DNA of 47,659 nucleotides, filler included, from Jimgerdemannia flammicorona (GCA_003990765.1; 2 parts of 2 records of this genome joined end to end with filler, not necessarily neighbours in it); one strand, 5' to 3'; positions 4,568 to 47,556 are shown, counted from the whole stretch's first letter. Program-made: numbers and translations. The notes: generated by a model from the letters alone, not told the origin.

Positions 4568-6627
4568 TGTAAGCGCACAACCTCCAAGCTACCAAAATCA
4601 CACATCACCCTCTGAACAAGCCACTGAAATCTCATACAACCTCTGAACAAATCTGGAAATCACCTGCTTGATCACGAAGCTGAGTCAAACCAAAGTCACA
4701 GCGCACAAAGCTGAGTCAATATGAAGTCACAGAATACAAGAATTACATAAACGGAATCTTACCAATTAGGACCAAATACATATATACCGAGCACTAAGAT
4801 ACATTGAATCAGAGAACTAAAACAAACAAGAACTACAACTTCCAAACACACAAACATGACCACCAAGATCTATACCCATATCTGCGCTGACATTTGGAAT
4901 GCCATTGTCAACTGAGCTACACCCTCTCTGCCCCTCATGAATATCCATAGCCTAGCACCTCTCTACTTCATGGAAGCCCAATGGAATACTCTGAACATGC
5001 TTAGCGAGGCCTACTGAATCAGACAAATCTCAAGCTACTACCAGATCGGCCGCCTCCTGGAAGACATAGTCGAACACCACCATGATACAGACATTACCCA
5101 GATGTCTCAACACCAGAAGCTCATTGCCTACAAACATCGAGAACTCTTTTACGAGTACAGTACCATTATTCCCCGCCTCTGAGTTACTACCAGTGAAATA
5201 GTTGCTATCCTGTCCTACGGCCAAATCGATGACATGATACAAGAACTCAACCAGAAGTACCTCGAGTATGTCGAAACCACAGACAGAACCTTCCCACACC
5301 CCAATGATCATATCCTGCAAATGCCCCAAGTTGGATACGCCATGAAGGATATCTATGATATAATCCACTTCGATGAAGATGAAGCAGAAGACAATAACCC
5401 CTCTGATGCCAACATGACCTCTAGCCAAGGATCTCTGCCAACCCTGATCACTCTGCCAATCTTGCCGATGAACTTACAACAGTTCATAACTACATATGAG
5501 ACTTATTGGGACAATGACCACTGGCATGAATACCAACCTACATTTATTCCTAATTATTTTAACTACAATGAAGAGACTGGAGAACATAACCTGTACCTCT
5601 AGACAACCCTCGAGATTGAACCAACCACTCTACTACCTGAGTACAAGCAATATGAACCACAGCCGCCAGCTTATTACAACTCTACAACTCATAGTACTAT
5701 AACCTACAGAAGGTATGCAGATAGTAAATCCGATGAAGGTGAAGATGATACACCCCTCCTTTGCCCACCAACACCTTATCTAGCATATGAGATGGATGAT
5801 GCTATCCTGTGGGATGGTGATGAAGTCCAATATATTATTACCTCAGTGAACAAGGAGAAGTAATCTGTGAACCACTTTTCCTAGACAACTACTTTATTAG
5901 AGATGATGCAATTGACAGTGATGTCATCAAGAACTACCCAAACAGTGCCTAAACCCATAAATAGCCTAGCAGTCATAGTATAGTTAGATTAGCTTTGTAC
6001 AATGTGACTGTGAACTGACTCAGCAGTCAGATGATCTCTTAACATGTCAGATCACTCTTTACTATGTGACCGCATTCCGACTCAGCAAAGCACTTAGTGC
6101 TATATCCATATCTAGCATAGTCCAGATAGCCCCTCATTAGTATAAATACCCCCTCTCCCAGACCTCAGAATCTCAGACTCGAACACACAAGAACATTCCT
6201 GAATACTTCCCCACAATATCCCTTCACACAACTACTCCTAATATAGTAATATCATGAATAGCAAATAAACCTATTCAATAACTCACAAACCACTCTTAAG
6301 TAAATCTGCTCCCTATTAGGTCTCACTCCTAACCCCATCATGAAATTTCCTAATTGGGCATTGTCTGCAGCGATACACCAATTCAACTAAGCTGGTCTTA
6401 GTTTCTTGAACTTTCTGAAATATGGAAAATCCTGAACATCCAGAACTAGTCCAAAAAAGGACTTTGGTTGAGATGTCAACCCGATCTTGAAATCAATAAG
6501 CGTAGAGGATGTACTCCATATAAAATTGATCTTGACCATAAGAAAACAGTCTTCCAGAATATCCAGAACTTCCAGAAAATCTTTCCAGAACTACATAATG
6601 GTTATCCTAAAAAGTAACTCTCTTATA
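4568..6627 (+). mobile_element. ~2.06-kb TG..CA element (probable solo LTR), copy 1
   Basis: Starts TGTAAG and ends CTTATA (CTTACA with one transition). It interrupts LINE A ORF2 exactly: GTCCTTG|insert|CCTAA-TAGCAACTAA, versus GTTCTTGTAGCAACTAA in LINE B. Degenerate 5-bp TSD CCTTG/CCTAA. TATAAATA at 6141-6148. Confidence 0.85.
4856..5952 (+). pseudogene. Decayed ~365-codon ORF of unknown function inside the 2.06-kb element
   Basis: ATG 4856 (MTTKIYTHICADIWNAIVN...) is in frame with track ORF 5234-5602. It is interrupted only by TGA/TAG codons explicable as CGA/CAG transitions and by a 1-bp deletion near 5826 relative to copy 2. It ends ...KNYPNSA-TAA. Confidence 0.75.
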
Positions 6628-6963
6628 CCTAATAGCAACTAAGACTGGAATAGCACCAGGGGAGGATGGGCTACTGTGGGACTTTTGGAAGAAGATGGTT
6701 AAGGTTCCTGGTATTTTGGGTGAGATGACTGCTCTCTGTGATCATGTTCTTCAGAGTGGTGAGTGGGTTGGAGAGCAGGACCTTGGGCTGGTGGCTTTAT
6801 TGTACAAAGACAAGGGGAGGAGAGAAGACTAGAAGAACTGGCAACTGATCATACTTTTGGATATGGACAGAAAGATGGTGACTAAGGTGGTTGTTGCAAG
6901 GCTGCTGGGAGAGGAGCAGTGGGGCTTTGTTGGAGGCAGACTTATAAGAGATGGGACTGCATA

Positions 6964-9025
6964 TGTAAGAGGGTTACTTTTTAAGATAACCATTATGTAG
7001 TTCTGAAAGGGTTTTCTGGAAGTTCGGGATGTTCAGGAAGATTGTTTTCTTATGGTCAAGATCAATTTCATATGGAGTATGTCCTCTATGCTTATTGATT
7101 TCAAGATCGGGTTGACATCTCAACCAAGTCCTTTTTCAGACTAGTTCTGGATGTTCAGGATTTTCCATATTTCAGGAAGTTCAAGAAACTAAGACCAGCT
7201 TAGTTGAATCGGTATATTGCTGCAGACAATACCCAATTAGGAAATTTTGTGATGGGGTTAGGAGTGGGACCTAACAGGAAGTGGATTTACTTAAGAGTGG
7301 TTCATGGGTTATTAAATAGGTTTATTCGCTATTCATGATATTGCTATACTAGGAGTTGGTTGTGTGAAGGAATATTGTGAAGAAGTATTCAGGAATGTTC
7401 TTGTGTATTTGAGTCTGAGATTCTGAGGTCTGGGGGAGGGGATATTTATACTAGTGAGGGGCTATCTGGACTATGCTAGATATGGATATAGCACTAAGTA
7501 CTTTGCTGAGTCAGAATGCAGTTATATAGTACAAGTGTGATCTGACATGTCAAGAGATCATCTGACTGCTGAGTCAGTTCACAGTCATGTCATACAAGGC
7601 TAATATAACTATACTATGACTGCTAGGCTATTTATAGGTTTAGGCACTGTCTAGGTAGTCCTTAATGACATCACCATCAATTGCATCATCTCTGATGAAG
7701 TAGTCATCTAGAAAGAGTGGTTCATGGATTACTTCTCCTTGTTCACTGAGGTAATAATACATTGGAACTTCATCTCTGTCCCACAAGATGGCATCATCAG
7801 TCTCGTATGCTGGATAAGGTATTGGTGGGTGAAGGAGGGGTGCATCGTCTTCACTTTCGTCGGATTTGCTGTCTGCATACCTTATGTAGGTTACAGCACT
7901 ATGAGTCACAGAGTTGTAGTAAGCTGGTGGCAGTGGTTCATGTTGCTTATACTCGGGTGGTGGAGTGGTTGGTTCAATCTCAAGAGTTGTCTAGAGGTAC
8001 AGGTTGTGTTCTCTAGTCTCTTCATTGTAGTTGAAGTAATCAGGGGTGAATGTGGATTGGTATTCATGCCAGTGGTCATTGTCCCAATAAGTCTCATATG
8101 CTGTTATGAATTATTGTAAGTTCATTGGCAAGGTTGGTGGTGTGATCAGAGTTGGCAGAGATCCTTGGCTAGAGGTCATATTGGCATCAGAGGGATCATT
8201 GTCTTCTACTTCATCTTCATCAAAGTGGATTATATCATAGATATCCTTCATGGTGTATCCAACTTGGGGCATTTGCAGGATATGATCATTGGGGTGTGGG
8301 AAGGTTCTGTCTGTGATTTTGACATACTCGAGGTACTTGTGGTTGAGTTCTTATATCATGTCATCAATTTGGCCATAGGATAGGGTAGCAACCATTTCAG
8401 TTGTAGTAACTCAGAGATGGGGAATAATGGTGCTATACTCATAGAAGAGTTCTCAATGTTTGTAGGTGATGAGCTTCTGGTGTTAAGACATCTGGGTAAT
8501 ATCTGTATCATGGTGGTATTCGATCATGTCTTCCAGGAGGCAGCTGATCTGGTAGTAGCTTGAGATTTGTCCGATTCGGTGGGTCTCACTAAGCATGTTC
8601 AGAGCATTCCATCGGGCTTCCACAAAGTAGAGGGGTGCTAGGCTATGGATATTCATGAGGGGCAGAGGGGGTGTGGCTCCATTGACAATAGCATTCCAAA
8701 TGTCAGCACGGATACAAGTATAGATCTTGGTGGTTATGTTTGTGTGTTTGGAAGTTGTGGTTGTTGTTTGTTTTGGTTCTCTGATTCAATGTGTCTTGGT
8801 GCTCGGTATATATGCATTTGGTTCTGATTGGTAAGATTCTGTTTGTGTAAATCTTGTGTTCTGTGACTTCATATTGACTCAGCTTTATATACTGTGACTT
8901 CAGTTTGACTCAGCTTCGTGATCAAGCAGGTGATTTCCAGATTTGTTCAGAGGTCACATGTGATTTCAGTGGCTTGTTTAGAGGGTGACATATAATTTCA
9001 GTGGCTTAGAGGTTGTGTGCTTACA
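6964..9025 (-). mobile_element. ~2.06-kb TG..CA element (probable solo LTR), copy 2, inverted relative to copy 1
   Basis: TGTAAG at 6964 and CTTACA ending at 9025. Perfect 5-bp TSD GCATA (6959-6963 and 9026-9030). Reverse-complement match to 4568-6627 along its length. The LINE RT frame resumes on both sides. Confidence 0.9.
7640..8737 (-). pseudogene. Second copy of the ~365-codon element-internal ORF
   Basis: 1098 nt from an ATA (mutated ATG) at 8737 to the stop at 7640. It includes track ORF 7640-7909 (…YADSKSDESEDD…DVIKDYLDSA) and matches 4856-5952. Confidence 0.75.
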
Positions 9026-12867: not shown

Positions 12868-12970
12868 ATTCACATTTACATATTTATACATTATATTTAC
12901 ACATTTATGTATTACATTTACACATTTATATATTACATTTATATATTTATATATTACATTTACATTCACA
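12868..12970. repeat. Degenerate (CACATTTA/TACATTTA)n microsatellite
   Basis: Directly visible tandem 6-8-bp units. Confidence 0.8.
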
Positions 12971-13139
12971 AACTCATATATATGTATAGAAATATCTAAT
13001 AACTGATAGAATTTTAGCAGGCAGCATAGATGTGTTTAGATGTGTTTGGATATATTGGACATATGTAGACTACTAGCATGGCTGCCTGCAGATGATATGA
13101 TATGCATACAGTATAGACCTGATAGTCATTGATGTCTAC

Positions 13140-15100: not shown

Positions 15101-16020
15101 CAATGAACTACTCATATCTGATATACAGTATATGGTATTGTAGTATACATAATACAGAATCGAGGAGCTGCTCACCTTCTAATATATATAGCATAATGTT
15201 ACAGTATATAGTATATAGAAAAGATAAACTGCTTATGTCTGATAATATATAGTTTGGTATATAGTATGTGGTATATAGTGTACAGTATATAAGAATTATG
15301 GTTTCTTACATCTGTCTATCTACTTATATCTATGATGAAATGATAGAGCTTATTTCTTGCAGCTGTCTTATTTATATATAGTGATAGAGCTTAATTATAT
15401 TTCTTATAACTATCTCTTTCGTCTATAATAATGAGGCTTACTTATATCTTTCTGTTTTGTGATAGAGCTAATGTTTTTTATGATCACTTATCTGCCTTGA
15501 AACTTTGAACTTTGGAATGTTACATCATATGTGAGCAGTTCCTCTTTTCTGTACACCAAATATAGACATAAGCCCCTTCTCTTTTCTGCCTTCTCTTTCT
15601 GTATGCTGTAAGCTGCACCATTAGATATGAGCAGACCCTCTTTTCTGCACAGCTCCTCTTTTCTGTACACTGCAAGCCACACACCACATACTATATACAT
15701 TGGATATGAGCAAATTCTCTTTTCTACTGCAAACATTAGATATAAGTAAGTTCTCTTTTCTGTTGCAAATATTGGATATAAGTAAGTCTTCTTATCTATA
15801 TACTGCATGCTGCACACTACTATACACTATATACTACCATATATATAGGATGTGAGCAGCTCTTTTCTATATGCCATAAGTAAGCTATTTGCTACATACT
15901 ACATACTACTGCATACTATATACCACCATACACATAGGACATGAGCAGCTCTTTTCTGCATACTACAAACAAGCCACATGCCTCATATCATATACCATAT
16001 ACTACATACTGTATGAACAA
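15100..16020. repeat. Intergenic region with repeated GTGAGCAGCTC-like motifs in inverted arrangement
   Basis: GAGCTGCTCAC at ~15165 and similar motifs at 15105-15240 face GTGAGCAG(C/T)TC copies at ~15531, 15629, 15707, 15852 and 15942. The flanking ATAGTATGTGG and CCACCATATAC-like runs are also inverted. Confidence 0.6.
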
Positions 16021-16022
16021 CT

Positions 16023-17185
16023 ATGACTCATCCTAAGTCTGGAAATAGACTTGAATATCAAATCTATTATAAAGTATTTAAGTCAGCCTTAGGGCTGACC
16101 CAGTACAACAATAGCCAACATCATTATATCTCCAGAAGTTCAAGTTCTCTTCCAATTGATGATAGTAAAAATTTTGAAACATTATATACAAATTCTGCCT
16201 CTGCTCCTACTGCTGTGATTGGGGTACCTCTAGATATTATAAACCTTTTACTGCAATTGGCAAATTCAACCTCTACTGCTACTGCTACTGCTGTGGTTAA
16301 AGTATCTAAGTATGATTCTGAGCATATTTCTGAGCATAATTCTGAGTATAATTCTGAGTACATTCTGAGTATGATTCTGAGCACAATTCTGAGCATGATT
16401 CTGAGCATAATTCTGAGTATGATTCCGATTCTGAGTATGATTCTGAGCATGATTCCAAGTACAATTCTGATGATAATACAAGCTCTGAGATAGAATCTGT
16501 AGATATCAACTAAGGTTTTATTAGTCTTCCAGACCTGATAGTATATGGTGAAGTCCTACCTCATTATCAGGCTGGCTATATATATCAAACAGAAGATTCT
16601 GTATCTCTAGTTTTCAAAATTCAGAAGAATTAATACAAATAGGATAGATATCTATATTATTTCTAGTTGAATGAAGATGAGCTCTGACTTATTAAATTTT
16701 TGTTTTCAAAGTCCAAAATGTCAATGAAGGCTGCTGACTATTTGCTGGATAGATTTAGACACTAGAGGATATTAATGTCTGGTCTATCTTTCAATACAAG
16801 TAAGCAGATATTAGAGCATATTGATCAGGCACCATTTCTTCAGATAAAGTGATTGATAATTTAAGTATATTAATAAATATATTAATTATATATCTTAATT
16901 GTTAAGTCTTAATTACTATAAATATATTTTGATCTATTTTAGACATTCTTATATAGTTATTACTATAAAGTATAATGCTGAGTCTTGGTGTGGTGATTAT
17001 ATTCTATGGTATCAAAACCCCTTAGTTATTATTCAAAGTATGTTCAATAATCCTATATTTAAAGAACAAATGGTATATACTTCTGAGAAACACTTCTCTC
17101 AAGATGGAAGTCAATTATACTCAGAAATTTACTGGTCAGATTGGTGGTAGCATTTACAGGTATTTATATAAATAGATATTAAGTA

Positions 17186-17224
<39 letters not shown>

Positions 17225-19798
17225 CTAATTATTGAAAACTACTTATATATCTTCAGGATATCTTACCAGAGGGAGCTACTGTCATTCTGATTCTTTTTGA
17301 TATTGATGAGACATGCCTTACTTATTTAGAAAGAATTTCCTACTATCTATTATATCTGAGTATTGGCAATCTATCAAAGATTGCATGGTGTATATATAGA
17401 GATCATGTATATACACTTGTAGTATATTCCCCTATTCTGGAGGGTTCAGGATAAGATACAGATAAACTATCATTTATAGAGGCTAAAAGAGTTCTTTATC
17501 ATCACTATATACAAAAGATCTTAAAATATCTAGATGTTGTAACATAAAGATAATTATTATCAAATGATTATACATATCTATTTTTATAAAAAAAAAATTA
17601 ATTATTAATTTTATTATACTTATATAATAGATGATTATAGAAAAGACCTAATAAAAAAACTCACAACTGCTATCTAGTGATATTATCTTTTCATGTTGAC
17701 TATCCTGAAGTATGTTTGCTTACCTTGATACATCAAAATCAAGCCTGTTCAATTTATATGATACCAAAAAGTAATTTTGCAAATCTTTTCAAGAAACATC
17801 ACAATTATATAGTATAATAAATATCATAAGTCTTTTATCTTGCATGAGATCTAGAAAAATAAAGAGATATTAAAAAAGCAAGAGAGTTGCTCCAGATAAA
17901 TAGACTTGTTAATGTACAGGTATATATATAGTTTTTACTAAATTTAATTTATAAAATATTTACTAAATTACTAATTCTTTAATTATTTATTTAGAATTGC
18001 CTATGAAAAATTCCTCAATGCAACATATATTCAACTATTATGCCTGATTTGCTTCATCAACTTAAGGCGGGTGTTTGGTCATATTTATTGAACTGGTTTC
18101 AATATCTTCTATAAAAAATCTATAATACTTGAAAAGCAAATCAATACTTAGATGAGTTTGACAAATGATTTGCATTTATTCTACATTTTGTAAATATCAA
18201 ACAATTCTCTAAAGGAATTTAGCATATAGAATATATTACTGCTAGTAAATATGCAGATATTATAAAGATATTTATAATATATTTATAATATATTTTTTAT
18301 ATTATTAATTATCTAAATAATATTTTAGTATATATATATATTTATTACTATCACTATGTCTATTATTTCATCTAATTCCCTGTTGCCTTTCCTGCTATTG
18401 ACATGCCCATCTATCAATATGCCTATATCTCTGTCTTAATCATATTGCTCATTATTTGTCTCAATCATATTATCTATCTCAATCATATTACCTCAATTAT
18501 ATCATCCATCATTCATCTCAATTGTTCATATATTCTGTTTCAATCATTCATATCATCCATAGTATCATTCATCTCAACCATATTAATATAATTCTAGATT
18601 TTCTTACCTTGTATTAGAGACTTCTTTACCAGTAATAGAGAATTGTTAACTCTTAATACTATTCAATTCTTTATAAACTGATATATACTGATATCAATAC
18701 CAGTATAATCTAAACCATTACTGGAGAAAGTATCTCAATTTCTGAAGAAATTCAATTAATGCAAGAGAATATTTAAAGATATATCAAGATGTTCTGTCAG
18801 CATTCACACTCCAGAATTATGAACAGAAAATTATAGATTATGAAACTCCAGATAACTTTAATACAGAATATATAGAGTATCAGCATATTACTGATGCCAA
18901 ACAACCATATTCTCATACTAACAAATGTGATCACATTCCTCAGATGATTTAATATATGCAGTGTAAAACTATTCTAGAGATAAAGTAGTAGTATTTGGAG
19001 ATTCAGAAACCTTCTATATCTATTCAAGATATATACCACTATTGTTCTTTAAACTCTTGAACAAAACACTCTTCAATACTTATATCATTAGCAAACATTC
19101 AATATAATATAAATATAGAACTATGCATTTAAAATTTTCTTCATAATTAGCTATTTCAAGATGGAGAAGGGAGTCAACATGGGGTAAAGAAGTGCAATCT
19201 TCTAGAGCTACAGAATCCACAGATATATATTTAATTTTACTATTTAAACTATAATTAAATATAGTTTAAAAACTATACTCATATTATTATTATTATCATT
19301 ATTATTATTGGGATACAGATTACTGTTTTTTAATTATTAAATCTTTATATATCTGATATCTTTAGAGATAATGCAGTCATACACTATATATATCAATGCA
19401 ACTCCAGTTTTTATAGACAGCTATAATATGACTAGATAGCACTTCTCAATAGCTGAATCAAAGAGAAATTAGGTAATATTTCCGACTTCAATATTGCACA
19501 ATTGAAACTACTATTTACATATGAGCATGAAAGTAAAATATTTTATCTTACTTGTATCCAGTACTTTAAAATACTCAGTGTATAGGATTCAGATATATGT
19601 ATGATAATGTTGGAACATACAGAATCATTTGAAGTTATTCAAATTAGTGATATAATATATAATATTCATTTGATTCCATACTTTGATAGTTCTTCTATTG
19701 CAAGTAATGTTCTAAAAGATAAAAAAGATATCTATAGCTTTGAGAAATATCTTCTTAATTACTATAGTGACAGATATGTTTACTTCAAGTTCAATTAA
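16023..19798 (+). pseudogene. Plavaka-type (CACTA/EnSpm-related) transposase pseudogene, multi-exon
   Basis: N-terminal decayed C2H2 finger (EYQIYYKVFKSALGLTQYNNSQH, with C>Y and H>Y transitions). Motifs recognised: YSEIYWSDWW*HLQ|DILPEGATV, YLSIGNL, HVDYPEVCLL, PDLLHQLKAGVW, DNFNTEYIEYQHITDAKQPYSHTNK, and C-terminal NIHLIPYF..YLLNYYSD. Exons are separated by AT-rich GT..AG introns. Confidence 0.85.
16309..16472. repeat. 12-bp tandem repeat (ATGATTCTGAGC consensus) encoding an acidic (H/Y)(D/N)SE tract
   Basis: Directly visible; lies in the N-terminal part of the transposase ORF. Confidence 0.85.
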
Positions 19799-19832
19799 CT
19801 CTAGATATTCTCCATATATTGTATCATAATAT

Positions 19833-20650
19833 TGTAATGCACAATAGCTCTCAGGGAGCAGATAACAAGTTGGAGTTGATGATTTACTATTAGTGTTTAG
19901 TAGATAATTCTAGTGAGTACCAGCAGTAGATTCATCAATAGTTCAACTAGATTGATTCCTAGTTCCCAGTTGAGCAAATTACAGAAAGACCCACTCCTTG
20001 TCAGAATGAATCCACATACTGAAATTCAATCCAAATTCGGTACCTTAGTAAAATCAAGTTAAAACCAGAGACTGGTTCCCATGCTTTGATAGAATTGTTT
20101 GAGCTCAGTTCAAACCCCTGGACCTCCCCTTTGGAACAGAGCTTGTCAGGATCCCTGAAATCATTCTCACTGAGTTTCATGAGATTATGACCCATTCTCA
20201 TGGAGATATACATCAAAATATCAAGAAGATATCTCAAAATATACAACCATGAGAAAATAGCCTATATATAGAGAACCACCAAAGATACCCAAGAGAAAAC
20301 ACCTCCCTAAAATCACCAGAGACCTCAGCTACAATCTATCTAAAGCTGAAGATTATTCCCCAATTCATTAATAAGTTATTCAAGTTCTTTCAAAACCTTG
20401 ATCAAAACTTCAAATCCAAATATCTCCATAACCAAGAGATATTTCAAGAAACAGATATCAGGATAATTTTCTAGCAATTTGAGGCTATCTCTATGCCAAG
20501 TTTCAAGAGGATAGCTTTATTCCTTAGAAATTTCACACTGCCTTCTTTTTATAACAAAAAAATCAGTCAGTATAGAGAAATCCGGATTTGGTTTGCCACC
20601 AAGCCACCCGAAAAGCAGTCCATGTCATGTTTTCTGCCATGTTCATCACA
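19833..20650 (+). mobile_element. Probable solo LTR, 818 bp
   Basis: Termini TGTAATG / CATCACA form an inverted repeat with one transition. 4-bp flanking duplication ATAT/ATAT. TATATATAG at ~20263. Composition differs from the AT-rich flanks. The TSD is low-complexity, so support is moderate. Confidence 0.55.
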
Positions 20651-21235: not shown

Positions 21236-22549
21236 CCTTTCTCTACTATAATTTACATTATACATACTTTTATAATATACTTTCAAGTCATTTATTGGAG
21301 AAAGATACTAAGGCAATGGTAAACAGTAAGCAAGTAGACACATATATTAGGTCAAGTGGATCCATGCTTACCAACAACTCTCTCTGCTATAAGGAATGAC
21401 GTGCCCAGATAGGCAACATGAGCAATACAGATAACATGGACAATATAGGCAACATGGGCAATATGGGTGAGCAAGACAGACAAGATGGGCAAGACAGATA
21501 AGATGACAAAATGACAAAATGGGCAATATGGGCAAGATGGACAAATAGCAAGATAGGCAATATGGGCAAAATAGACAAAATGAGCAATATAGACAATATG
21601 GGCAATATGGACAACATGGGTAATACAGGTAGGCAAGATGGGCAAGATGGGCAAGATGGGTAAGACAGGCAAGATAGGCAAGACAGCAAGATAACAAGAT
21701 GGGTAACATAGGCAAGACAGGCAAGATGGACAAGATGAGCAAGATGGGCAAGACAGTAAGATGGATGACATGGGCAAGATGGGCAGATGGCAAGACAGGT
21801 GATATGGACAAGATGGGCAAAATGAGCAAAATGGGCAAAATGGGCAACACAGGCAATATGGGCAACATGGGCAATACAAGCAACATGGGTGAGTAATATG
21901 GGTAATATGGATAATATAGGTAATATGAGCAACACAAACAACATGGGCAGGCAAGACAGAAAGATGGGCAAGATGGCAAGATGGCAAGACAGATGACATG
22001 GGTAAGATAGGCAGACAGCAAGACAGGCGATATAGACAAGATGAGCAAAATGGGCAAAATAGGCAATATAGACAATATAGACAATATGGACAATATAGAC
22101 AATATGAGCAATATGGGTAATACAGACAACATGGGCAATATGGGTGGGCAAGATAGACAAGATGAGTAAGATGGGCAAGATGGGTAAGATGGACAAGACA
22201 GCAAGATAGCAACATGGGCAATATAGGCAATATGAGCAGGCAAGATGGGCAAGATAGACAAAATGGGTAAGATGGGTAAGATGGGTAAGACAGGAGGTAC
22301 TAATAGAGATAGGTCAAATGCACTAGATGCCAAGTACTTGAGGTGGTTAGGACTCACAATCCATACCCACTCTTGGGTGGGGCAGGCTGAGTAGGAGGAT
22401 CTAGTTACTTGGGCAGTAAGATCACAACTCATATCCTAAAGATACAAGGCTGAGTGAGTATAAAGGTGGGTTGAGATTGGGGTGGAATGGGGCTACTGAT
22501 ATAATATGAGGATATATAGCATGTTATAGATAGTTAATAAATGAGAAAA
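21236..22549 (+). mobile_element. Composite non-autonomous retrotransposon: LINE 5' head, VNTR and A-tailed 3' segment
   Basis: Perfect 19-bp TSD AAATATATAAAAACAGTCA (21217-21235 and 22550-22568). 21237-21362 is collinear with the 5' end of LINE B (30226-30101, minus strand). AATAAA at 22536-22541 is followed by a short A run. Confidence 0.82.
21406..22292 (+). repeat. ~890-bp VNTR of 9-bp units (ATGGGCAAG / ATGGGCAAT) with 8-bp variants
   Basis: Directly visible; accounts for the three low-complexity minus-strand ORFs at 21352-22432. Confidence 0.95.
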
Positions 22550-22770
22550 AAATATATAAAAACAGTCAAGTAGTTTTTCCTTATCAAGTAGAGGAGTTAC
22601 CCTACTCATAATACTATCTGGAAAAAGAAAGAAGTACTGAAAAATATATATAAAGCTCACTAGAACTATATAGAAATACTTACTCTATAATAAGAATAAA
22701 AACTACAACTCTAAAACCAGAATATATAGTAAATATGAAAGAGATTATTATGTTTATCTAAGATATGTAT

Positions 22771-23781
22771 TGTCACGTAGTGGTCGCTGAGTCCTTCAAA
22801 TATGCCAGATTCTCTTCAAGGTGTATCTCTTAGACTAACTCAAGTTTGTTATAAGCAAGTTCTTATTGGAGTGCCTTCCCAAGGTCTTATAGTCCTCAAA
22901 CTTCTTATCTTTAACTGTCTTGTTATCTCTTTAGATTACTTGCAAGGGATTGTGTATTGCACTGAACTTGACTGAATGCACTGAATTGACTGACTTTATT
23001 TCAGAGGAAATAAGAGAGGTATTTATACAAAATAGAATTCAATGGTTGCTAAGATATAAAGCTAAATATAAATTTCAATAACTAAAACTACTGAGTTCTA
23101 GGGCTGGCATTATTTAGTACCACATCAAAATACCAGTGCTGGAACAATTTCGCGTCACCTCAGAATACCAGTGCTGGCATTATCCAGTGTTACATGAGAA
23201 TACCGGTGCTGGCATTATCCAGTGTAACAAAGAACTTTTAGAGCAGAAAGTTCAGGATCATGGGAGCTTCATCATCATCATCACTGAAGGAGATGAGATC
23301 CGCGAATTTGTCATGTAGGTCATGCGTCTCACGTACTTCGTCATTTTCGCATGCCTCGATGTTGCGCGGGATGACGTCATCGATGACGTCATCACGTTCG
23401 GCTGTGGCGGGAAAATCAGGAACAAGGTCTGGAGCTCTCCAGTCTATGAGGTTCTCCTCTACAAAATAGGGGACAAATGTGGGGTCTTGGGGGGATCTAA
23501 CCCGGATGCTTGGGCCTTGGAATACTGAGATCAATCCTTGCAGGAATTGGTCTGGGTTGTCCTGAAGGATAGGGTGCCAGAAGTCTTCTACTTCTTTGCT
23601 GTTGAGGGTGATGGTGGACTGGGCTTCTGTAGCTACCCTGGCTTCTAGTGCATTGATGCGGCGGGATGACAGGTCTCTGAAGTCTGAGACTCTAACATAC
23701 TCCAAGTTGGGGATCGACCATGGTGCATGCCTGAAGATCTGATGGATCTTCTTTGCTGTCCTTGCCTCACGTAAGTCTATG
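22771..23781 (-). mobile_element. Young LTR 3' portion, truncated by the assembly gap
   Basis: Abrupt TGTCACG terminus at 22771. Minus-strand TATAAATA at ~23020-23027. AATACC(A/G)GTGCTGG direct repeats at 23129-23230. CpG is retained, unlike in the flanks. Confidence 0.7.
23238..23780 (-). CDS. Uncharacterised LTR-element accessory ORF, 5'-partial at the gap
   Basis: Open without stops from the gap edge: IDLREARTAKKIHQIFRHAPWSIPNLEYVRVSDFRDLSSRR...FSDDDDEAPMILNFLL*. It shares a motif with 35490-35885. Confidence 0.7.
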   Translation of the reverse strand: MDLREARTAKKIHQIFRHAPWSIPNLEYVRVSDFRDLSSRRINALEARVATEAQSTITLNSKEVEDFWHPILQDNPDQFLQGLISVFQGPSIRVRSPQDPTFVPYFVEENLIDWRAPDLVPDFPATAERDDVIDDVIPRNIEACENDEVRETHDLHDKFADLISFSDDDDEAPMILNFLL

Positions 23782-23881
23782 NNNNNNNNNNNNNNNNNNN
23801 NNNNNNNNNNNNNNNNNNNNNNNNNTTAATTAATTAANNNNNNNNNNNNNNNNNNNNNNNNNNNNNNNNNNNNNNNNNNNN
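23782..23881. other. Assembly gap with artificial TTAATTAATTAA linker
   Basis: 44 N, then TTAATTAATTAA (23826-23837, stop codons in all six frames), then 44 N. Confidence 0.98.
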
Positions 23882-24010
23882 ACTCAATTCACAGATCTCT
23901 TCTACTAGATGGTGATGTTGCCTACTCTAGAGACCCCAACCAATCCACCACCCTGCCAGCAAATCACCCATCAACCTCTTCCATCTTAATAATTTCTTCT
24001 ATATACCTCT

Positions 24011-24012
<2 letters not shown>

Positions 24013-24047
<35 letters not shown>

Positions 24048-24332
24048 GTCACTCAGACTCCTTCCTTTATTAATACACCTGTCTATCCTCTATATAATAT
24101 ACTGTACCCACTCCTATCTAATCCTCCTAGGGGGTCTTTCCTCCTCTTACTCTCTCTTAATGAAAGACCACTTTGTTATTTATCATTACCACTCACCCAC
24201 CACTCAATTCACAGATCTCTTCTACTAGATGGTGATGTTGCCTACTCTAGAGACCCCAACCAATCCACCACCCTGCCAGCAAATCACCCATCAACCTCTT
24301 CCATCTTAATAATTTCTTCTATATACCTATCC
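24013..24332 (-). mobile_element. 3' end of older 5'-truncated LINE copy E (continues at 30245-30610)
   Basis: A poly(T) from 24013 followed by ATAGTCACTCAGAC is the reverse complement of the LINE 3' end. It joins 30260 onward when LINE B is removed. Confidence 0.75.
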
Positions 24333-27300
24333 TTTTTTTTTTTTATTTTTTATTTTTATAGTCACTCAGACTTTTCCCTTTATTAAAATACCATCTATCA
24401 TCTAAATAATATACAATGCCCAACCCTATCCAATCCCCCTAGGGGGGCCCCCTCCTCCTATCTCCACTTGATGAAAGATTACTTTGTCTAACACCATCTC
24501 TACCTGCCCATCACTCTGTCTGTAGATTCTCTCTACCAGGCGACAACGTATATCACCCTGGGGACCCTAACCCACCCACCACCCAGTCAGCAGATCCTCC
24601 ATCAACCCCTCCCATCTTAACAACTTCTTCTGTAAACCTATCTACTGCCCCTTCTTGAAGACAAAGAGCCAATATCTAGCCAGCCCTACCCACACTGCTA
24701 AGACTCACTCTATAGTGAGCCAACCATTGCCCACCCCACCCACAAGCCAAGATTCCAAATTCTTCCAGTAATCTCTCTCTCCATCCGGCCTCCTCTCCAC
24801 TCCCAGCTGCTCCCCTACTGCTATCCAAAAGTCCCCCAGAACCTCACACTCTCTCAGTCAATATTCAGATATTTGTACAAATTTCCCAACTTTCTCTACA
24901 TTATAATACTCCTCACAATCTAAATGGTCACCCTCTATAAGATGCCCAGTACAGAAATTCAACATGATATTCCTCCTCAGCATCTACCACCATACTACCC
25001 AGAACTTAGGAGGAAGCCACTGCTATACCTCAGCACTCCATGACCAGACTCCTACTCAGTCTCACTCCTTGCCAATTCTTACAGTCTGTCAACTACTTGG
25101 CCAAAGATCCTGACCAAGGCCCTGCTGACACTTCACTCCATCACCAATATCAAACTCAGCAAGTGGAACACCCCCCAAAAGGAGTCTGTTCCATTGCTAC
25201 ATAGCTGAACCCCCCTGTACCCCCCCCTCATTGCCTCGCCAGTGTAGTCCTATCCTGTGTGTACCATCCACCACCCTCCACCAGAAGTCCTTATGCCATA
25301 GCTGTTGCTCCCAGTCAGGCCCACCAGAGAGAGCAAATCTCCTGAGGACCCCTGAGGGGAGAACCTCATCTCCCACACCTTCTGCAGTAGCAGCACCCAC
25401 TCTCCTCCCTGCAGTTCAACAGCCCTTTTCAACCACCAAGCTTGCAGACAGTACAGCCACTTAGGGAAATCCACAAGGTCTAGTCCTCCCCTAACCACTG
25501 ATATTGCAAGAGTATCCCAACTGATCTGGGACCTCCTCCCTGCTCAAATCTAATCTTGAGCCAATTTTGTCAGTCTCTTCACCATTCAAGCTGGGAAGTC
25601 TAAATGATAGGCCACATACCATAGCTTGGGGAACTAATAAACATTCAGAAATGACACCCACTCTGCCAGGGAGATGTGGTGACCCCCCCAACCCCTAAGG
25701 GCCTCCCCCCAAATGGCCACTCTCCTCTCCCACCACACTCATAGCAATATAGATCTATATAGAAAGAAATATGCCCAAGTACCACACCACCTCTCCCATG
25801 GAGACAATTGTTCCAATGACATTCCCTCCCATCAGCCCATTCCCTAACACCATTATCTCATACTTATACTAGTTGAGTTTCATCCCAGAGTGTGCCTCAT
25901 ACCATTCCACTATCTCCTTGAGTGCCTCAATGTCCTCCACTGATCCAAGCCCAACCACTATATCATCTGCAAAAGCCCCCACCTTCCACACCACACTATA
26001 TACAGAGAGCCCTACCACCCTCTGATATATCCTATCCATCAAAGGTTCCAAAGAAAGGGCATAAAGGATAGAGGACAGTGGGTCTCTCTGAGGAACTCCT
26101 CTTCCCAAGGGAAATGCCAGACCCCAGTGACCATTACATGACAGCACTGCCCTACTGCCCTCCAACAAATTCAGCATAGAAGTCCAAAACCTTGGGGGAA
26201 TACCAATTCTATCCAACACCTTGCCTAGACATACCCACTGAACATGGTCATAGGCCTTCTCCTGGTCCAAAAAGACCAGTCTACCATCTAGTTTACAAGC
26301 CTGGGACCCCTCAATAATGCCATACACCTAGGCAGTCCCATCTCTAATAAGTCTGCCTCCTACAAAGCTATGCTGCTCCTCACCCAGAACCTGTTGGGCA
26401 ACCCTCTATAACCTTACAACAATCACCTTAGTCACCATCTTCCTGTCTATGTCCAGAAGCATGATTGGTCTCCAGTTCTTCCAGTCCTCCCTTCTTCCCT
26501 TATTCTTGTACAATAAGGTCACCAGCCCCAAGTCCTGCTCACCAACTCACTTGCTATTCAGAAGAACATGGTCACAGAGGGCAGCCATCTCTCTTAATAC
26601 TCCAGGAACCTTCACCATCTTCTTCCAGAAGTCCCAAGGTAACCCATCCTCTCCTGGCACTATCCTCAGTTTAGTTGCTACAAGAACTCTCTGGATCTCC
26701 TCCTCTTGGACTGGTAAGATCAAATCACCCAGTCTGTCTACTTGCAGTGGCTCCCACTCCTCCAGTGTATCTTCAATTACCTCCTCATCTGCACCCCCTT
26801 CCTCCTCACTCCACAGACCCCTCCAATTTTCCTTTAGTGCTCCCAAGATCTGTTATATGCTATACACTATATCTCCCTCAGCATCCAAGATCCCATTCCA
26901 TCAGTGGTGCACCCTCCTAGCTTAGAGAAGCCTTGACAGATACCTAGTGGGCCACTCCCCTTTCTCTAGCCTCTGCCACTGTAGCCTGGCTGCCATACCT
27001 TTCATATGAATCTCCTTCTCTTCTCATAATATTTGTTGCAGCTCCACCACCTCCAACTTTGCTCACTCCAACCTCCAATCCTCCACCCCTTCCAAATAAA
27101 GCAACTTGGCCCACTCTATCTGCAATCTAATCAGCCTATTAGAAGCATACCATATATACTTCCTTCTCAGCCTCCCAGCCTCCCTACTAGCTTCTCCCCA
27201 ATAAACCCTTATAGTCTCCTTCAACCTCATCTACTGGGCCTCTACAGTTAATCCCTCCTGTGTCTAGGTAGCGATCTTCACTTGGACATCCTCCATCCAT

Positions 27301-34952: not shown

Positions 34953-35410
34953 TGTAACATAGCGGATGCTTACTCTTGAAAGTACATCGGATTTCTGTAT
35001 CTTGAAAACTTGACTGTTCTGACTCTTGCAGAGTCTCTTGAAGTTGTAGGGGAGAGTGGGTGAGTTCGAAGTATATCTGCCTGCAGGCTTACTAGTTTCT
35101 TTGCTATCTCTTTGCTTTGAACTATTTCGATCTGAGGTTTATTCACTCGAAGATACTGGGTTATTTATACAAGTTTGCTAGCTCTGAGAGAGTGGCTAAG
35201 TAATAAATGAGTCATTTGGACTTTGTCAAAACATTTAGACAATGTCTAAATGCTATACTAAATCAGGGTGTTCGATTTGGATAATGTCTAAGAATTTAGA
35301 CAATGTCAAAATTGAGGACTGCTAACTATAAGGCTATACTTCTTTGGGACTGGGTACAATCAAGTGTCTATTCCCTATTTCCTTCTTCCAAATTTGGTTG
35401 TACCATCACA
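34953..35410 (-). repeat. 3' LTR of the Ty3 element
   Basis: TGTAAC...ATCACA. Direct repeat of 47100-47556. Minus-strand TATAAATA (35162-35169) and AATAAA (35138-35143). Purine tract AGGAGGAAG is adjacent at 35412-35420. Confidence 0.93.
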
Positions 35411-35489
35411 ACTTCCTCCTGAATAGATGGTCTTATCCCTGAGGCATCTATTCAAACTCCCAGGCTTCAACCATCTATATGGTCTTGTA

Positions 35490-35885
35490 CTATGCAATTT
35501 GCTGCATGACTGTTTCCCAATGATGTCTTCTCACTTTCTTGAAGTCAGTGGGGGTTACTTCTCTCAGGTGGTCTATCACTGGTTCATCTTCTCGGAAAAA
35601 CTTGTGGATCCTTTTGGCAATAGTGATCTGTGAGTGGGAGAGTTGACACTTGGCAATCCAGTCCTCTTTGGTCTTTGCTGGATCCTGATTGAGCACCTGT
35701 CTAAGCTTGAAGTACTCTTGGAATTCTGCCCGATATTGATAGGCTCTAAAGTGTGAGATCTGAGAGAGATGAGTCTGCACAATAATCTGAATATCCTCAT
35801 AGTATGGCTCTATGGTCGGAGGCTCGGTGGTGTGCCATTGTCTTTTGATGGCTCTTTGGGCAGCACTAGTGATCTTGAGTGCCAT
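35490..35885 (-). CDS. Uncharacterised domain, in frame with the integrase C-terminus
   Basis: 131-aa track ORF (MALKITSAAQ...METVMQQIA region). The upstream codons read TTIH*N*LKKYLASNKSTA-M with no stop between the integrase GPY/F tail and this ATG. Confidence 0.75.
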   Translation of the reverse strand: MALKITSAAQRAIKRQWHTTEPPTIEPYYEDIQIIVQTHLSQISHFRAYQYRAEFQEYFKLRQVLNQDPAKTKEDWIAKCQLSHSQITIAKRIHKFFREDEPVIDHLREVTPTDFKKVRRHHWETVMQQIA

Positions 35886-37090
35886 CGCAGTACTTTTGTT
35901 ACTGGCCAGATATTTCTTGAGTCAGTTTCAGTGAATGGTGGTGGGGATTATTGTGCCTGAGAGTTTTCGTAGCCAAAAGGTGGTCTCTTTTATATCTTAC
36001 ACAAGGTAAGGTTCTTCCTACTTGGGCTCCAGTTTTCGTGACCATGAAGCTTCTACCATATTCCGATACACCAGGACCTTGTCTCCTATCTTGATAATCT
36101 CCAAGGGCTTGTGGTCTTTTCCACATTCCTCTGTTATAGTGTCTGCACCTTAGTTATGTAATCCTCAGCCTTCTTCCTGATTTGGTGTAGTCTCCATATT
36201 TCTATGTCCACATGTTTCCATACAGCATCTCTATTGGATGATAGGGTTCCTTGAGAACATTCTTCTCCAAACAGCATTTCTCAAGGAGTAAAGTGGGTGC
36301 TTTGTGATCAGATATCCCGGAGAGCAGATAATGCTATTGGCAGATAGTAATCCCAGTTCTTGTAGTTATCACAGATCTTGGCAATAACATTCTTGAGGGT
36401 TTTGTTGGTCCTTTCTACTTATCTGTTTCCTTGGAGGTGATAGGCTGTGGTCTGAATGTGCTAGATCTTGTACTTCTTGTAGAGAACCTCAAAGAGCTAG
36501 TTCATGAATTCTCTTCCTCTATCTGTAGTTACTTGTGTTGGGGTCTTGAACCGGCAGATAATTTCCTTGTGGAAGAAATCAGCAATTGACTGTGCATTGG
36601 CTTCCTTGAGGGGTCCTGCTTCTATCCACTTCATAAAAAGGTCTACGATGACAATGATGTATCAGTTACCAGTCAGGGTCAAGGGTAGAGGGCCGATTAC
36701 ATCTATTGCTATATGGGCAAATGATACTGGTTCTATGTGTGCTGATCCTGGGGCTTAATTCCGTTGGTCTTGTTTCTGTTTCTGGCATTTATCACATATC
36801 TTGACAAATTGTCTGATATCTTCCTCCATCCCTGGTCACCATATTATTCTTCTTGCCTTGTCATATATATTTGTTCCTCCTAGATGGCCAAGTTTATGTA
36901 CTGATTTCATTACTTGCTCCTTCTTGTGTTCTGGTATGACCAGTAGTTTTCCTTTCTTTAGTATTTCTCCATCAGTTTCGAATTGTTTCCATGTTCTGTT
37001 GATAATCGTTTATGTCCATTTTTCCAGATGTTGGGGCATTTTTCGCTGTCCCAGGTATATGATAATTCCATAGTAGAGCTCCTTATTCAT
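35886..37090 (-). pseudogene. Integrase, decayed
   Basis: HHCC (HKLGHLG...CDKCQK), core AHIAIDVIGPLP, TDRGREF, TAYHLQGNR*VERTNKTL, and GPY/F-type KIGDKVLVYR..KLEPK*EEPYLV. Confidence 0.88.
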
Positions 37091-37115
37091 GATTGATTTG
37101 TTGGTTGGAGGTAGT

Positions 37116-38420
37116 TCAAGGTATCCATGAGAGAGCATCTGCATTGAAATTTGTTCTTCCAGGGCAGTGTATGATGGTTACATCATATGCTTGTAACTTC
37201 ATTATCCATCTGGCATAGATTCCCTTGGGTTGTCCAGTTGTCAGTAGCCAGATGAGAGCTGAGTGGTCCATCTGGATGGTGAAGTGTCTTCCAGCCAGAT
37301 AGTAGTAGAACTTTTCCACAGCCCAGATAACTGCAAGACATTCCAACTTATAGGACTCATATTCTTTTTCAGCCTCTTGGGTTCTGCGGCTAAGATATGC
37401 AATGACATATTCTTTCTTGTCTTCTTTTTGAGCTAGGACTGCTCCTAGTCCCTGTATACTTGCATCCGTCTGAAGGATAAATTCTTGGGTCCAATTGGAT
37501 CATCTGAGGATGGGTGCCTGAGTTAGTCTGATCTTGAGTTCATCAAATGCTTTTTGTTGTCTGCCAGTCTACTGGAACTTGGTATCCTTCTTGTTGAGTT
37601 CATAGATTGGACCTGTGATGTTGGAGAATCCTCTAATGAATCTGCGATAGTAGGAGGCAAGTCCCATGAAGGCTTGGGCTTCTGTGACAGTAGTGGGCCT
37701 TGGGTATGCTGCTACTGCTTGTATCTTGAGGGGGTCCATGTGTGTTCCATCTCGATTGATAATATGGCCAAGATAGGAGATCTCGATTTCTGCAAACTTG
37801 CACTTCTTGGGTTTGATATAAAGGTCATGTTGTCTTAGTCTCTCCATTATCTGCTGTATGTGCTGCAGATGTTCCTCAGATGTCTTGCTGTAGATGATTA
37901 CATCATCGACATAGACCATCATCCATCTTCCCATGTCATAGCGGAAGATTTTGTTCATCATTCACTGAAAGCTTACTGGTGCATTGCACATTCCAAATGG
38001 CATTCATAGGTAGATGTAGGTTCCATCTGGTGTGATGAAGGCTGACTTTTCACTTGCCATCTCTGTGAGTCCGATTTGGTGAAATCCTGAGTATAAGTCC
38101 AGGGTGCTGTAGTACTCTGCTTCATCTCCCAGTGTTATAAGAATGTCACTGATGAGTGGCAGTGGTTTGTGATCCTTCTTGGTAACTGCATTGAGCTTTC
38201 TGTAGTCAACACAGAGCCTTGGGGCAAATTCTCCAAGTTTGCTTCCTTTTTTCAGGGCTAGTACAACTGGTGAAGACCAAGGGCTACTGGCTTCTTTGAT
38301 GATGCCAGCTTCTTCCATCTGCTTGATTTCTTCTCTGAGCCATTCTCGGTAGGCTGGCGGGACAGATCTTGCCTTCTGATAAATTGGTTCAGTGTCTCCA
38401 GTATCTATCTCATGATAGTA
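37116..38420 (-). pseudogene. Reverse transcriptase and RNase H, decayed
   Basis: SSPWSSPVVL, RLCVDYRKLN, LDLYSGFHQI, MPFGMCNAP, VYVDDVIIYS, FILQTDAS, ECLAVIWAV and NADALS. Confidence 0.95.
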
Positions 38421-38603
38421 GTATGGGGTCTTTCCCTTGATATCCTTGAAATCCGTGGCAAGAACATCCTCGAATTTGTGGAGTATCTTCTTGAGTTCCT
38501 CTTTGAGTGGGAATTCATCTCCAATGGTGTAACTGTGCTTGCTTGTGTTTTCCTCCTTCTTATGCTCGAGTTTGGTGATCTTGGTGCTGGTATATACTCC
38601 TCT

Positions 38604-39020
38604 TCCTGTGGATCCAAATCCTTTCTTTCCTCTTTTCGTTTTCTCCAGATTCTTGACTTCTATGATCCTTGGCTGTATGATTGAGAAGATCAACATCTGT
38701 ACCAATTGGTCCTTCTTCTTGACTGGGAATGGAATTGTAGGATTGTGGTTCCTAGCAATGAGTAGAATTTCTCCAGTATAGTCTGAATCAATGACTTCTC
38801 CTTCGATTGTAATTTCGCTTCTAGCCAGGCTGCTTCTTGTCTTGAGAATCCCAATATGATCCTTTGGGATGGTCATCTCTAGTCCAGTTGTGAGTAGGGT
38901 GGTTGTCTGGAGTTCGAGTACAGTTTCTTCTACTGTAGCAATGTCCATTCTGGCTGCGTTTTCTGACTTGTATTCTGGCAAGACTGTATCAGGGTGGATC
39001 TTTCAAATCTTGACCTTGAT
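38604..39020 (-). CDS. dUTPase domain within pol
   Basis: The five trimeric dUTPase motifs are recognisable in order: AARMDI, RSSLA, VIDSDYTGEI, DQLVQML and RGKKGFGSTG. It is in frame with RT in ORF 38004-38981. Confidence 0.92.
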
Positions 39021-39369
39021 TTCTTCTTCATCATCACTGTCCTCCAGGAGGGCTGGTGGTTCGTTATCTTCCTCCTTCTCTTCTTCTCTGATCTGTTTTT
39101 CGAGAGCTTTCTGTCTTCTTTCCTGGTAGATCTTCTTGGTTCTGATGGTGCACTAGTAGCAATCATTGACGTGCTCCATACAGTACATCTTGATTCCATG
39201 AGAACAGACTCCTTGTGGGACATAGCCTTCTGTGATCTTCTTGCACCATTCTTCTTCACTCATCTATCCAACTTTCTTCTTCTTTGGAGTAGTCACTATA
39301 TAGACTTCCTCTTGCTCACTCTCCTCTTCCTCTATATCAGGTAGGACTCCTTTATTGACATTGATGGGA

Positions 39370-39740
39370 ATTCATATCTTCTGTCCCTGGTAGGTGATCT
39401 GCATCTTCTGAGCATTGAGATCGATTATTGCCTTGGCTTTGTGAAGCCATTGATTGCCAATGAGGATGTTATACATAGTTGGTGGCATTGGTTACGATTA
39501 TATCTACTGGGATTGTTGCTCCTCCGATCTTGATGGGAACATCTTGGATCTTTCCTAGAGGTGTGGCTCTTGTGCCATCAGCTGTGATGAATACTAGCTT
39601 AGTTGCTTCTTCCACATCCCAACCTAGGTGGTCTGCTGCCTTCTTACTGAGGAGACATTCTCCTGCTCCCGTATCAATGATGGCTTCAAAGGTTCTATCT
39701 TCGATTTGGCATGTTGCATAAGCAGAGGTTTTGCGATTAT
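39370..39740 (-). pseudogene. Retroviral-type aspartic protease
   Basis: EAIIDTGAGECLLS in ORF 39469-39834; ILIGNQWLHKAKAIIDL follows after a frameshift. Confidence 0.9.
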
Positions 39741-40787
39741 CCTTACTTTCTTCTCCTGAGTTCTCTTGAACATTGTTGGCCTCAGTTATCTTCCATCCTT
39801 GTTCCTTAGTTGTTTCGGCAAGTCCAAACCTCATTTGCTGTCTGAATGTTAGGATTTCTGTAAGCTGACCAAAGGTTGCATTGACCTTTTGTTGACTGAG
39901 ATCCTTGAAGATATCATACTTGAAGGTCTTGGTCTTGCGAAGCTTCTTTTCTTTTTCTCCTTCACTGGCTGGAGTGGTTCCTCAGATGATATCTTGAACT
40001 GCTTGCTTCAGCTTGATATCTTGGTCCATCTCTTCGGCTTGGCTTTCTGTGTCAGTTTCCATCTACTTTTCTACTGGGTTCTTCTTGGGTCTTTCTGGCA
40101 GTCTCTTGTAGGGTTCTTTGCAAGCATCCTTCTTGGTGGTCTGAGCAGAATAGGCCTCCCATTCCTCTTTATCAGATTCTTCAATTTCTTCAAAGGTGAT
40201 TGTATTGGCCTGCTCCTTGTTTTGTATGGTGTTGCTTGGTTGAGCCTTGTGTTTGGTTTCACTCATACATTCATAGGAGTAGTGGCCTTCTTCTCCGCAG
40301 CTGTAGCAGGTACCTTTCTTCTTATCTGAGGTGGCGGCAAACTTCTGAACAGGGTGGCGATCTCTTCCTCAGATTTCCTTTACCACATCTCCCAGGTGGG
40401 CAGTCATTTCAGCAAACCTTTTGGTGAGTTCCTCCATAGGGTCACTGTTCTTTTGCTGCTCTGTAGCTTTTGGCTGGGGTGTGTTTTGATTGATCATTGT
40501 GGTGGGAATCATACTGGTTGCCTTGGGTGCCTCAATTCTGACTCCTGTAACTCTCTCCATTGTATGGTCTTGTGGGTATCCAGTATTGCTGAGCATAGGT
40601 GACCTTCTGTGGCAGATCCAGAATCACTGATAATGAGTGGATGGCCATGGCTATTTCTGGATGGACTCCTTTCATGAAGGTTGCTTTGGCCAACCTCTCC
40701 ATCTGCGACTCTTTCCAGTACCATTCAGGTTACACAACCTTTGGAAGGTACTTTCAACATCATTTTCGGCAAAAAGAGACTAACAAC

Positions 40788-42811: not shown

Positions 42812-42844
42812 AGGCTGATTGACGACATCACATATATCATCAAA

Positions 42845-47099: not shown

Positions 47100-47556
47100 T
47101 ATAACATAGCAGATGCTTACTTTTGAAAGTACATCAGATTTCTGTATCTTGAAAACTTGACCATTCTGACTCTCGCAGAGCCTCTTGAAGTTGTAGGGGA
47201 GGGTGGGTGAGTTTGAAGTATATCTGCCCGCAGGCTTACTAGTTTCTTTGCTATCTCTTTGCTTTAAACTATTTCGATCTGAGGTTTATTCACTCGAAGA
47301 TACTGGGTTATTTATACAAGTTTGCTAGCTATGAGAGGTGGCTAAGTAATAAATGAGTCATTTGAACTTTATCGAAACATTTGGACAATATCTAAATGCT
47401 ATACTAAATCGGGGTGTTCGATTTGGATAATGTCTAAGAATTTAGACAATGTCAAAATCGAGGACTGCTAACTATAAGGCTATACTTCTTTGGGACTGGG
47501 TGTGATCAAGTATCTATTCCCTATTTCCTTCTTCCAAATTTGGCTGTACTGTCACA
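47100..47556 (-). repeat. 5' LTR of the Ty3 element
   Basis: TATAAC (mutated TGTAAC)...GTCACA; direct repeat of 34953-35410. Confidence 0.93.

Follow-up and report, generated by a model that had tools for sequence, protein, structure and literature searches.

A 47,659-nt stretch of Jimgerdemannia flammicorona DNA (hereafter, the window) contains three types of ORF beside or within the long terminal repeats (LTRs) of retrotransposons, which we call ORF A, ORF B and the C-type ORFs. We put at about 70% the probability that A, B and probably C are diverged versions of one ORF3, belonging to a group of Ty3/gypsy elements with a dUTPase between protease and reverse transcriptase (RT). ORF3 occupies the 3′ end of the element as an ORF of its own, which in B overlaps the stop of pol. 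On this reading, the ORF3 of the A family would also end directly before the polypurine tract (PPT) and the LTR, and in C a 2.06-kb LTR would hold the whole cassette within its U3, as though the PPT had shifted to a place upstream of it. Given a cassette in U3, every C-type LTR, solo LTRs included, would carry a copy.

The elements and their ORFs

Eukaryotic repeats lie nested in the window. A LINE-like element occurs in at least four diverged copies (63-80% alike) with a strong strand-specific GC skew and RT matches; one copy splits the Ty3 element described below, and another hosts both 2.06-kb LTRs.

1075-11000: LINE-like copy
24400-30226: LINE-like copy
31631-34531: LINE-like copy
40749-46051: LINE-like copy

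Two of the LINE copy ends have tandem repeats with spacings of ~245-320 nt (11026-11708 and 23882-24668). The region 12000-20000 is AT-rich (GC 26-33%), which may be the base composition of the host between repeats, and its sole long ORF is of low complexity (16017-16555). A minisatellite of ~1.1 kb with a 9-nt period, whose minus strand is open in three frames, lies at 21350-22440, past the 22771 end of the A LTR by ~330 nt. Among the variants over 22450-23780, G>A and C>T prevailed in all four of the sequencing runs compared, and the strong excess of transitions in the repeats resembles cytosine-deamination or RIP-like decay.

The first-pass annotation had pointed to motif-bearing ORFs at three places in this nest, and we recovered all of the peptides that it quoted in the given frames. 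The first of these ORFs to be considered, ORF B, belongs to a Ty3 element with the following features.

47100..47556 (−): 5′ LTR, with CTAT before it and a PBS-like leader after it
35898..39981 (−): decayed pol with Pfam matches, in this order, to protease, dUTPase, RT, RNase H and integrase
35987..35994 (−): TATAAAAG, a candidate internal promoter in the region encoding the integrase C-terminus, 86 nt ahead of the start position of ORF B
35448..35908 (−): ORF B, a decayed copy of the ORF3 of this element, with the stop of the B family at 35448-35450
35412..35420 (−): polypurine tract AGGAGGAAG, directly before the 3′ LTR
34953..35410 (−): 3′ LTR, TGTGAT...GTTACA, then the 4-bp target duplication CTAT

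The two LTRs are 94-95% alike, with TG..CA ends and the 4-bp duplication CTAT. The 5′ LTR is followed by a TGG-type stretch, which we assign as a putative primer-binding site (PBS), without a matched tRNA. The dUTPase domain between protease and RT is found at 38004-39002 (−), with a Pfam E-value of 6e-22. In the window copy of ORF B, the open frame is 35490..35921(−), the start-codon position reads CTG, not ATG, and premature TAG stops are present at 35490-35492 and 35475-35477. The family stop lies ~30 nt before the PPT and the 3′ LTR, and the full B-type protein has 153 aa.

ORF A is found beside a second, putative LTR.

23781..23881 (no strand): run of N with a short TTAATTAATTAA spacer in mid-run, a contig joint that truncates ORF A
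23238..23780 (−): ORF A, the last 180 codons and stop of an A-type ORF3, its 5′ part lost at the N run
22771..23229 (−): putative LTR of the A element, 459 bp, TGTTAC...GTGACA, with its 3′ end shown and its 5′ end inferred

The joint resembles the linker of concatenated contigs, so that its two sides are perhaps not genomic neighbours. The open frame that holds ORF A, 23238..23825(−), is interrupted at 23781 by this N run. Judging from its relatives, which are proteins of 247-342 aa with their own Met, ORF A makes up the last 180 residues of such a protein; P0001 and P0006, which are 94-98% identical to it, have 247 aa. At least 13 variants were found in ORF A, and third codon positions account for 7 of the 13 among those listed, a proportion to which we gave no weight.

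The stop of ORF A lies 8 nt before the TGTTAC of the putative LTR, which contains a TATAAATA box (23020-23027) and is nearly equal in size to the B LTRs (459 bp vs 457-458 bp). Contigs of three sequencing runs leave the window exactly at the end of this LTR at 22771 (loose ends: 10 in X1, 2 in X3 and 1 in X6). The sequence past the end of the A-LTR copies is a PBS-like leader, in which 27-28 of 30 letters match the leader after the 5′ LTR of the B element. Based on this common leader behind the LTR, we regard the A and B elements as sister Ty3 families, and the earlier description of the families as unrelated-looking therefore does not hold for this pair. The DNA of the LTRs themselves was not significantly alike among A, B and C, in agreement with the first reading (9, 51 and 105 of 200 shuffles reached the respective pairwise scores).

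In the window sequence, the 5′ boundary of the A LTR shows no clear PPT, so that ORF A could sit within a longer LTR, as in C. We also scanned metagenomes for related loci and found one, L001; none was found in prokaryote genome contigs or in viral contigs. At L001, the stop of an A-type ORF is directly followed by GGAGGGAGGA and a TGTAAT LTR-type start, which by its sequence is a PPT-LTR junction. The upstream flank of L001 showed no similarity to the integrase of the window, with nothing below E 0.89. In the A and B elements alike, ORF3 is placed between pol and the 3′ LTR. We did not encounter a full-length element of the A or the C type.

The C-type ORFs are found in two units of about 2.06 kb.

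4568..6627 (+): C copy 1, a solo LTR of 2,060 bp, TGTAAG...CTTATA, inserted in a LINE copy
4856..5952 (+): C-type ORF copy 1, 365 codons with six in-frame stops; TATATA 75 nt upstream (4781-4786)
6964..9025 (−): C copy 2, a solo LTR of 2,062 bp, TGTAAG...CTTACA
7640..8737 (−): C-type ORF copy 2, 365 codons with six in-frame stops

The two units were inserted separately into a single LINE copy and have 6-nt inverted termini. For copy 2, the 5-bp target duplication GCATA (6959-6963 and 9026-9030) is exact, and for copy 1 it is imperfect, CCTTG/CCTAA (3/5). We read them as solo LTRs because of their TG..CA ends, inverted termini and 5-bp duplications. Within U3, the 365-codon frame is followed after ~190 nt by the LTR's own TATA box, at 6142-6149 in copy 1. 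Two in-frame stops, at codons 109 and 249, are common to both copies, which counts against our reading. Of the six stops that are unique to one copy, five stand opposite CAA, CAG or CGA in the other copy, and in the open relative P0015 a Q takes the place of the shared stop at codon 249. Both of these observations fit C>T decay after insertion. The two LTR copies (4568-6627 vs 6964-9025) differ by 194 transitions and 18 transversions. We also noted tandem units of ~31 nt with GCTGAGTCA at 4673-4734 and 5993-6087, which flank the C-type ORF in inverted orientation and are 79% complementary over 34 nt. Such units may serve both TATA boxes as enhancer sites, or may mark the two ends of an old insertion.

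It had been proposed to check whether such ORFs lie between pol and the 3′ LTR or within LTRs: B lies between pol and the 3′ LTR, the L001 ORF, judged by its 3′ side, stops before its PPT and LTR, and C is within an LTR. The idea of an LTR-borne ORF was correct for C, whereas A adjoins its putative LTR.

The shared domain and the place of C

The part that the proteins have in common is an N-terminal domain of ~105-130 residues with the motifs W/F-x-E-Y, A-K-[KR]-[IV]-H-x-x-F and V-x-x-x-D-F. In A and C, the domain is followed by a long C-terminal part, which is acidic in both as the first-pass annotation had it, whereas B consists of the domain alone. The N-terminal parts have a pI of 6.4-8.7, and the tails of three A-family proteins one of about 4.1-4.3. 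A short motif [DN]-[LI]-I-x-F with an acidic run is found in the tails of P0001, P0002, P0004 and P0007 (A) and, for C, in P0015 and at window 5340-5400. Although the tails of A and C are otherwise unaligned, this motif may be of the short linear kind that mediates interactions.

We compared the domains both pairwise and as family profiles. In BLASTP, ORF A and ORF B gave 12 identities in 42 residues with an E-value of 0.011, and their Smith-Waterman score of 49 (shuffles, 29.4 ± 4.9) was reached by 4 of 1000 shuffles. When the A family (8 sequences) was compared with the B family (7 sequences) by hhalign, the score was 46.7 (E 1.8e-6, probability 89.8%, 80 columns). None of 156 column-shuffled B alignments reached this score (mean 13.6, sd 2.7, max 23.9), and the reversed alignment gave 15.8. 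MAFFT, unaided, placed the two families in the same register as the profile match and extended it upstream, so that residues ~37-142 of B align with the N-terminal 130 residues of A. Judged from these alignments, the A and B domains are homologous. We also considered a Gag-derived origin of the domain and rejected it, as the domain HMM matches nothing else in the window.

The position of C is less clear-cut. It may be that only A and B share the domain and that the C ORF is an unrelated LTR-borne gene whose resemblance is noise from a helical pattern, and we give this alternative a substantial minority share of the probability. It is favoured by the pairwise tests, which were not significant for C with either A or B (508 and 122 of 1000 shuffles equalled or exceeded the score for A with C copies 1 and 2, and 71 and 206 of 1000 for B). 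The C-terminal halves of A and C also appear unrelated, with a score of 13.1 vs a null of 12.3 ± 2.2 (n=222), and a profile made from B only favours another register for C (20.0 vs 14.4). However, the profile of the A family matched C with a score of 25.3 (E 0.014), and that of A+B with 27.0 (E 0.008), in the register proposed by the first reading. Neither score was reached by any of 82 shuffles (max 23.2 and 21.5, respectively), although the hhalign probability was only 3% for the first match and 3-5% for the C matches overall. In a six-frame search of the window (~95,000 residues) with the domain HMM, there were four matches at E≤10, namely B, A and the two C copies (E 0.022 and 0.049), and the C matches fell at the expected N-terminal place. 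In addition, the layout of C is that of B and L001, with a TATA box ~75 nt upstream, the ORF, and the TATA box of the LTR ~190 nt after the stop. Taken together, we consider it probable, on this sequence evidence, that C belongs to the A/B domain family. A domain common to three LTR families, as first claimed, is thus supported for A and B marginally in the pairwise tests and clearly in the profiles, and for C weakly in the profiles and the HMM search and not in the pairwise shuffles.

Relatives, selection and origin

A HMMER search of 1.84 billion representative proteins with ORF A returned five proteins at E≤1e-3, to which two further cluster members were added. They lie on contigs of 0.9-4.8 kb and, like the relatives of B and C below, are metagenome proteins from JGI/IMG or ENA that are unnamed or 'hypothetical'. 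For ORF B, we found six relatives with 61-75% identity. The C frame was searched in read-through form, with X at the stops, and gave one relative, P0015, an open 247-aa protein that is 62% identical and has Q where both C copies have TAG. Open frames, 200-342 aa long, are retained among A-family members that are 32-47% identical.

Next, we calculated substitution rates. Between ORF A and L001 (166 codons), dN was 0.53 and dS 1.66, the latter saturated, with a ratio of 0.32. This comparison shows, at the codon level, purifying selection on ORF3 across element lineages. The two C copies gave a naive dN/dS of 0.23, with 29, 19 and 54 differences at the three codon positions. Of the codons with a single difference, 42 of 85 (49%) were synonymous, against ~37% expected under a neutral C/G>T/A model. 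Given that the neutral model already predicts 37%, the C pair supports selection on C only modestly. The dN/dS check suggested earlier was therefore positive for A, and for C its signal shrank to a modest one under the C/G>T/A bias.

ORF3 is a real conserved accessory gene in A and B, and probably in C. In a Pfam search at E≤10, none of nine ORFs or proteins matched any family, and with the open relatives this bears out the earlier claim that LTR retrotransposons carry an accessory protein family which is conserved and has no name. A search of PHROGs gave only rows of E 0.09-0.15, with function not annotated, and the A+B profile had one match among PDB sequences, at E 4.4. In the ESM Atlas, the nearest named clusters scored 0.84-0.95 with few shared features and serve as leads only; of two proteins compared with the recognition mark of 2300, P0008 passed (2533) and P0004 did not (1979), and the rows of both overlap. 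One Atlas cluster with 15% HTH_3 appeared at scores of 0.84-0.92, among unrelated rows and with poor models, and there was no HTH match in Pfam.

As to their origin, the ORFs might be host genes that different elements captured independently rather than an ancestral gene of the retroelements. Capture and sharing of ORF3s have been documented in bdelloid rotifers (PMC5408684), and the dissimilar LTRs of A, B and C would also suit such captures. However, no free-standing cellular homologue was found among the 1.84 billion representatives, where the five matches are all on short contigs. Moreover, the readable flanks of the ORF3s are LTR-type, and the leader common to the A and B elements fits vertical descent. 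We therefore consider independent capture improbable.

The domain of the Ty3 family could also be a C-terminal extension of integrase, for example one that targets integration like a chromodomain; the first-pass annotation had described it as fused to integrase. ORF B does follow directly on integrase and overlaps its end, and the window copy has lost its ATG. However, the pol frame ends at a TAA 8-10 nt past the start position of ORF3 and is a different frame, and there is an in-frame stop four codons before the start position of ORF B. All six B relatives have their own Met at the same residue (M-A-[NT]), including one whose 3,003-nt contig could have held a longer frame. No fused longer form of B was found among 62 candidates from longer proteins, which is weak evidence, and ORF B has no Pfam match to a chromodomain. 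From its own Met and its frame, we conclude that ORF B is a separate ORF3 of ~150 aa, so that the fusion reported earlier has to be withdrawn and an integrase extension is very unlikely. Lastly, a chance resemblance of spurious ORFs in decayed repeats, without any gene family behind it, can be dismissed even though all window copies are broken or truncated and the A-B pairwise E-value is only 0.011, because open, diverged relatives exist in three groups, the A-B profile score lies ~12 sd above its shuffles and already refutes chance for A and B, and dN/dS for A vs L001 is 0.32.

Possible function and known systems

No transmembrane stretch was found in nine proteins, in which the maximal 19-residue hydropathy was 1.05, and we rejected an env-like ORF3 for lack of a membrane segment. 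The shared domain is predicted to be all-helical. Both AlphaFold models were all-helical and poor (pLDDT 42.5 and 49.6). In the comparison of predicted structures proposed earlier, their helices are colinear in the aligned register, but this agreement is not independent, since the alignment used for the second model contained both families. Foldseek gave no match to the PDB at E≤0.001. The best VIA-align row for the B model (pLDDT 49.6) was the core of HRSV M2-1, with Z 5.4 and rmsd 3.8 over 91 residues, which is within the noise of helical bundles; the same core had the highest Foldseek TM-score, 0.38, at E 6.4. Given that there is no usable structure and no fold match above noise, any function is a guess, and our best guess is a regulatory helical domain, joined to an acidic tail in A and C.

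A TATA-like box precedes the start by 86 nt in B, 80 nt in L001 and 75 nt in each of the C copies. This regularity, which was noticed after the fact, suggests an internal promoter. Apart from the TATA box, the sequences ahead of ORF3 in B, L001 and C could not be aligned, and the 8-mer TATAAAAG occurs only four times in the window, counting both strands. We tentatively propose a mechanism in which the TATA box 75-86 nt ahead of ORF3 would drive a subgenomic mRNA that would use the poly(A) site of the LTR and encode a regulator or adaptor protein. Binding of the element's nucleic acid or of a host factor would fall to the helical domain, and recruitment of host machinery to the acidic tail.

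The family is of interest as an orphan, seemingly non-enzymatic gene under selection in sister Ty3 families, with an apparent promoter of its own. A, B and C would form a natural series in which to ask how accessory genes arise and move relative to the border between PPT and U3, and what a retrotransposon gains from a regulator-like protein. In addition, the ORF3 family gives a label to a set of 'hypothetical' metagenome proteins.

To our knowledge, few LTR retrotransposons other than retroviruses have extra genes, and most such genes are env-like or encode enzymes. Among retroviruses, sag of MMTV and nef of HIV/SIV overlap U3 or lie in it, and foamy viruses have an internal promoter for tas/bel. 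ORF3 resembles the retroviral 3′ genes in its 3′-end position, and C would lie wholly in U3 and be duplicated in both LTRs. It may also resemble the foamy-virus genes in having a possible internal promoter inside the upstream gene. By analogy, one could imagine a circuit like that of foamy viruses, with ORF3 as a regulator that is expressed from a promoter within the 3′ end of pol and acts on the element's own LTR or on host silencing, although we think this unlikely. In that case, the C lineage would have taken the whole cassette of promoter and gene into its LTR, and each of its many solo LTRs would be a free-standing unit, spreading the regulator genome-wide. Unlike these retroviral genes, ORF3 is known from sequence alone, has no sequence or fold link to them that we could find, and its host is not that of a vertebrate retrovirus. 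The helical core of M2-1 and VP30 of negative-strand RNA viruses, the best row for the poor B model at a noise-level Z, serves as a lead only.

Among fungal elements (Novikova et al. 2010, PMC2864245), the Ty3/gypsy element PosPlaTy3-5 has a dUTPase between PR and RT, as is reported for basidiomycete elements, and an 'add. ORF' of unknown function is drawn for some fungal elements, with neither sequence nor family given in the text. We did not find a description of the present ORF3 family in the literature searched, Repbase, Dfam and paper supplements apart.

The LTR retrotransposons of bdelloid rotifers (Vesta, Juno and TelKA) have ORF3s downstream of pol, which Rodriguez, Kenefick and Arkhipova (2017, PMC5408684) describe as env-like, GDSL esterase and DEDDy exonuclease types, with LTRs of 159-551 bp. 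As in the bdelloid elements described there, an ORF type recurs across families and a dUTPase lies between protease and RT (PMC5408684). Unlike the bdelloid ORF3s, the present proteins have neither a Pfam match nor a membrane segment, and unlike C, no bdelloid LTR is reported there to hold the ORF. That extra ORFs after pol are common to families of elements is thus already known from the same text (PMC5408684). What is new, against the literature searched, is a protein family that sister Ty3 lineages carry in two forms, one with the acidic tail and one lacking it, and its probable placement, in one lineage, as a whole cassette within a 2-kb LTR.
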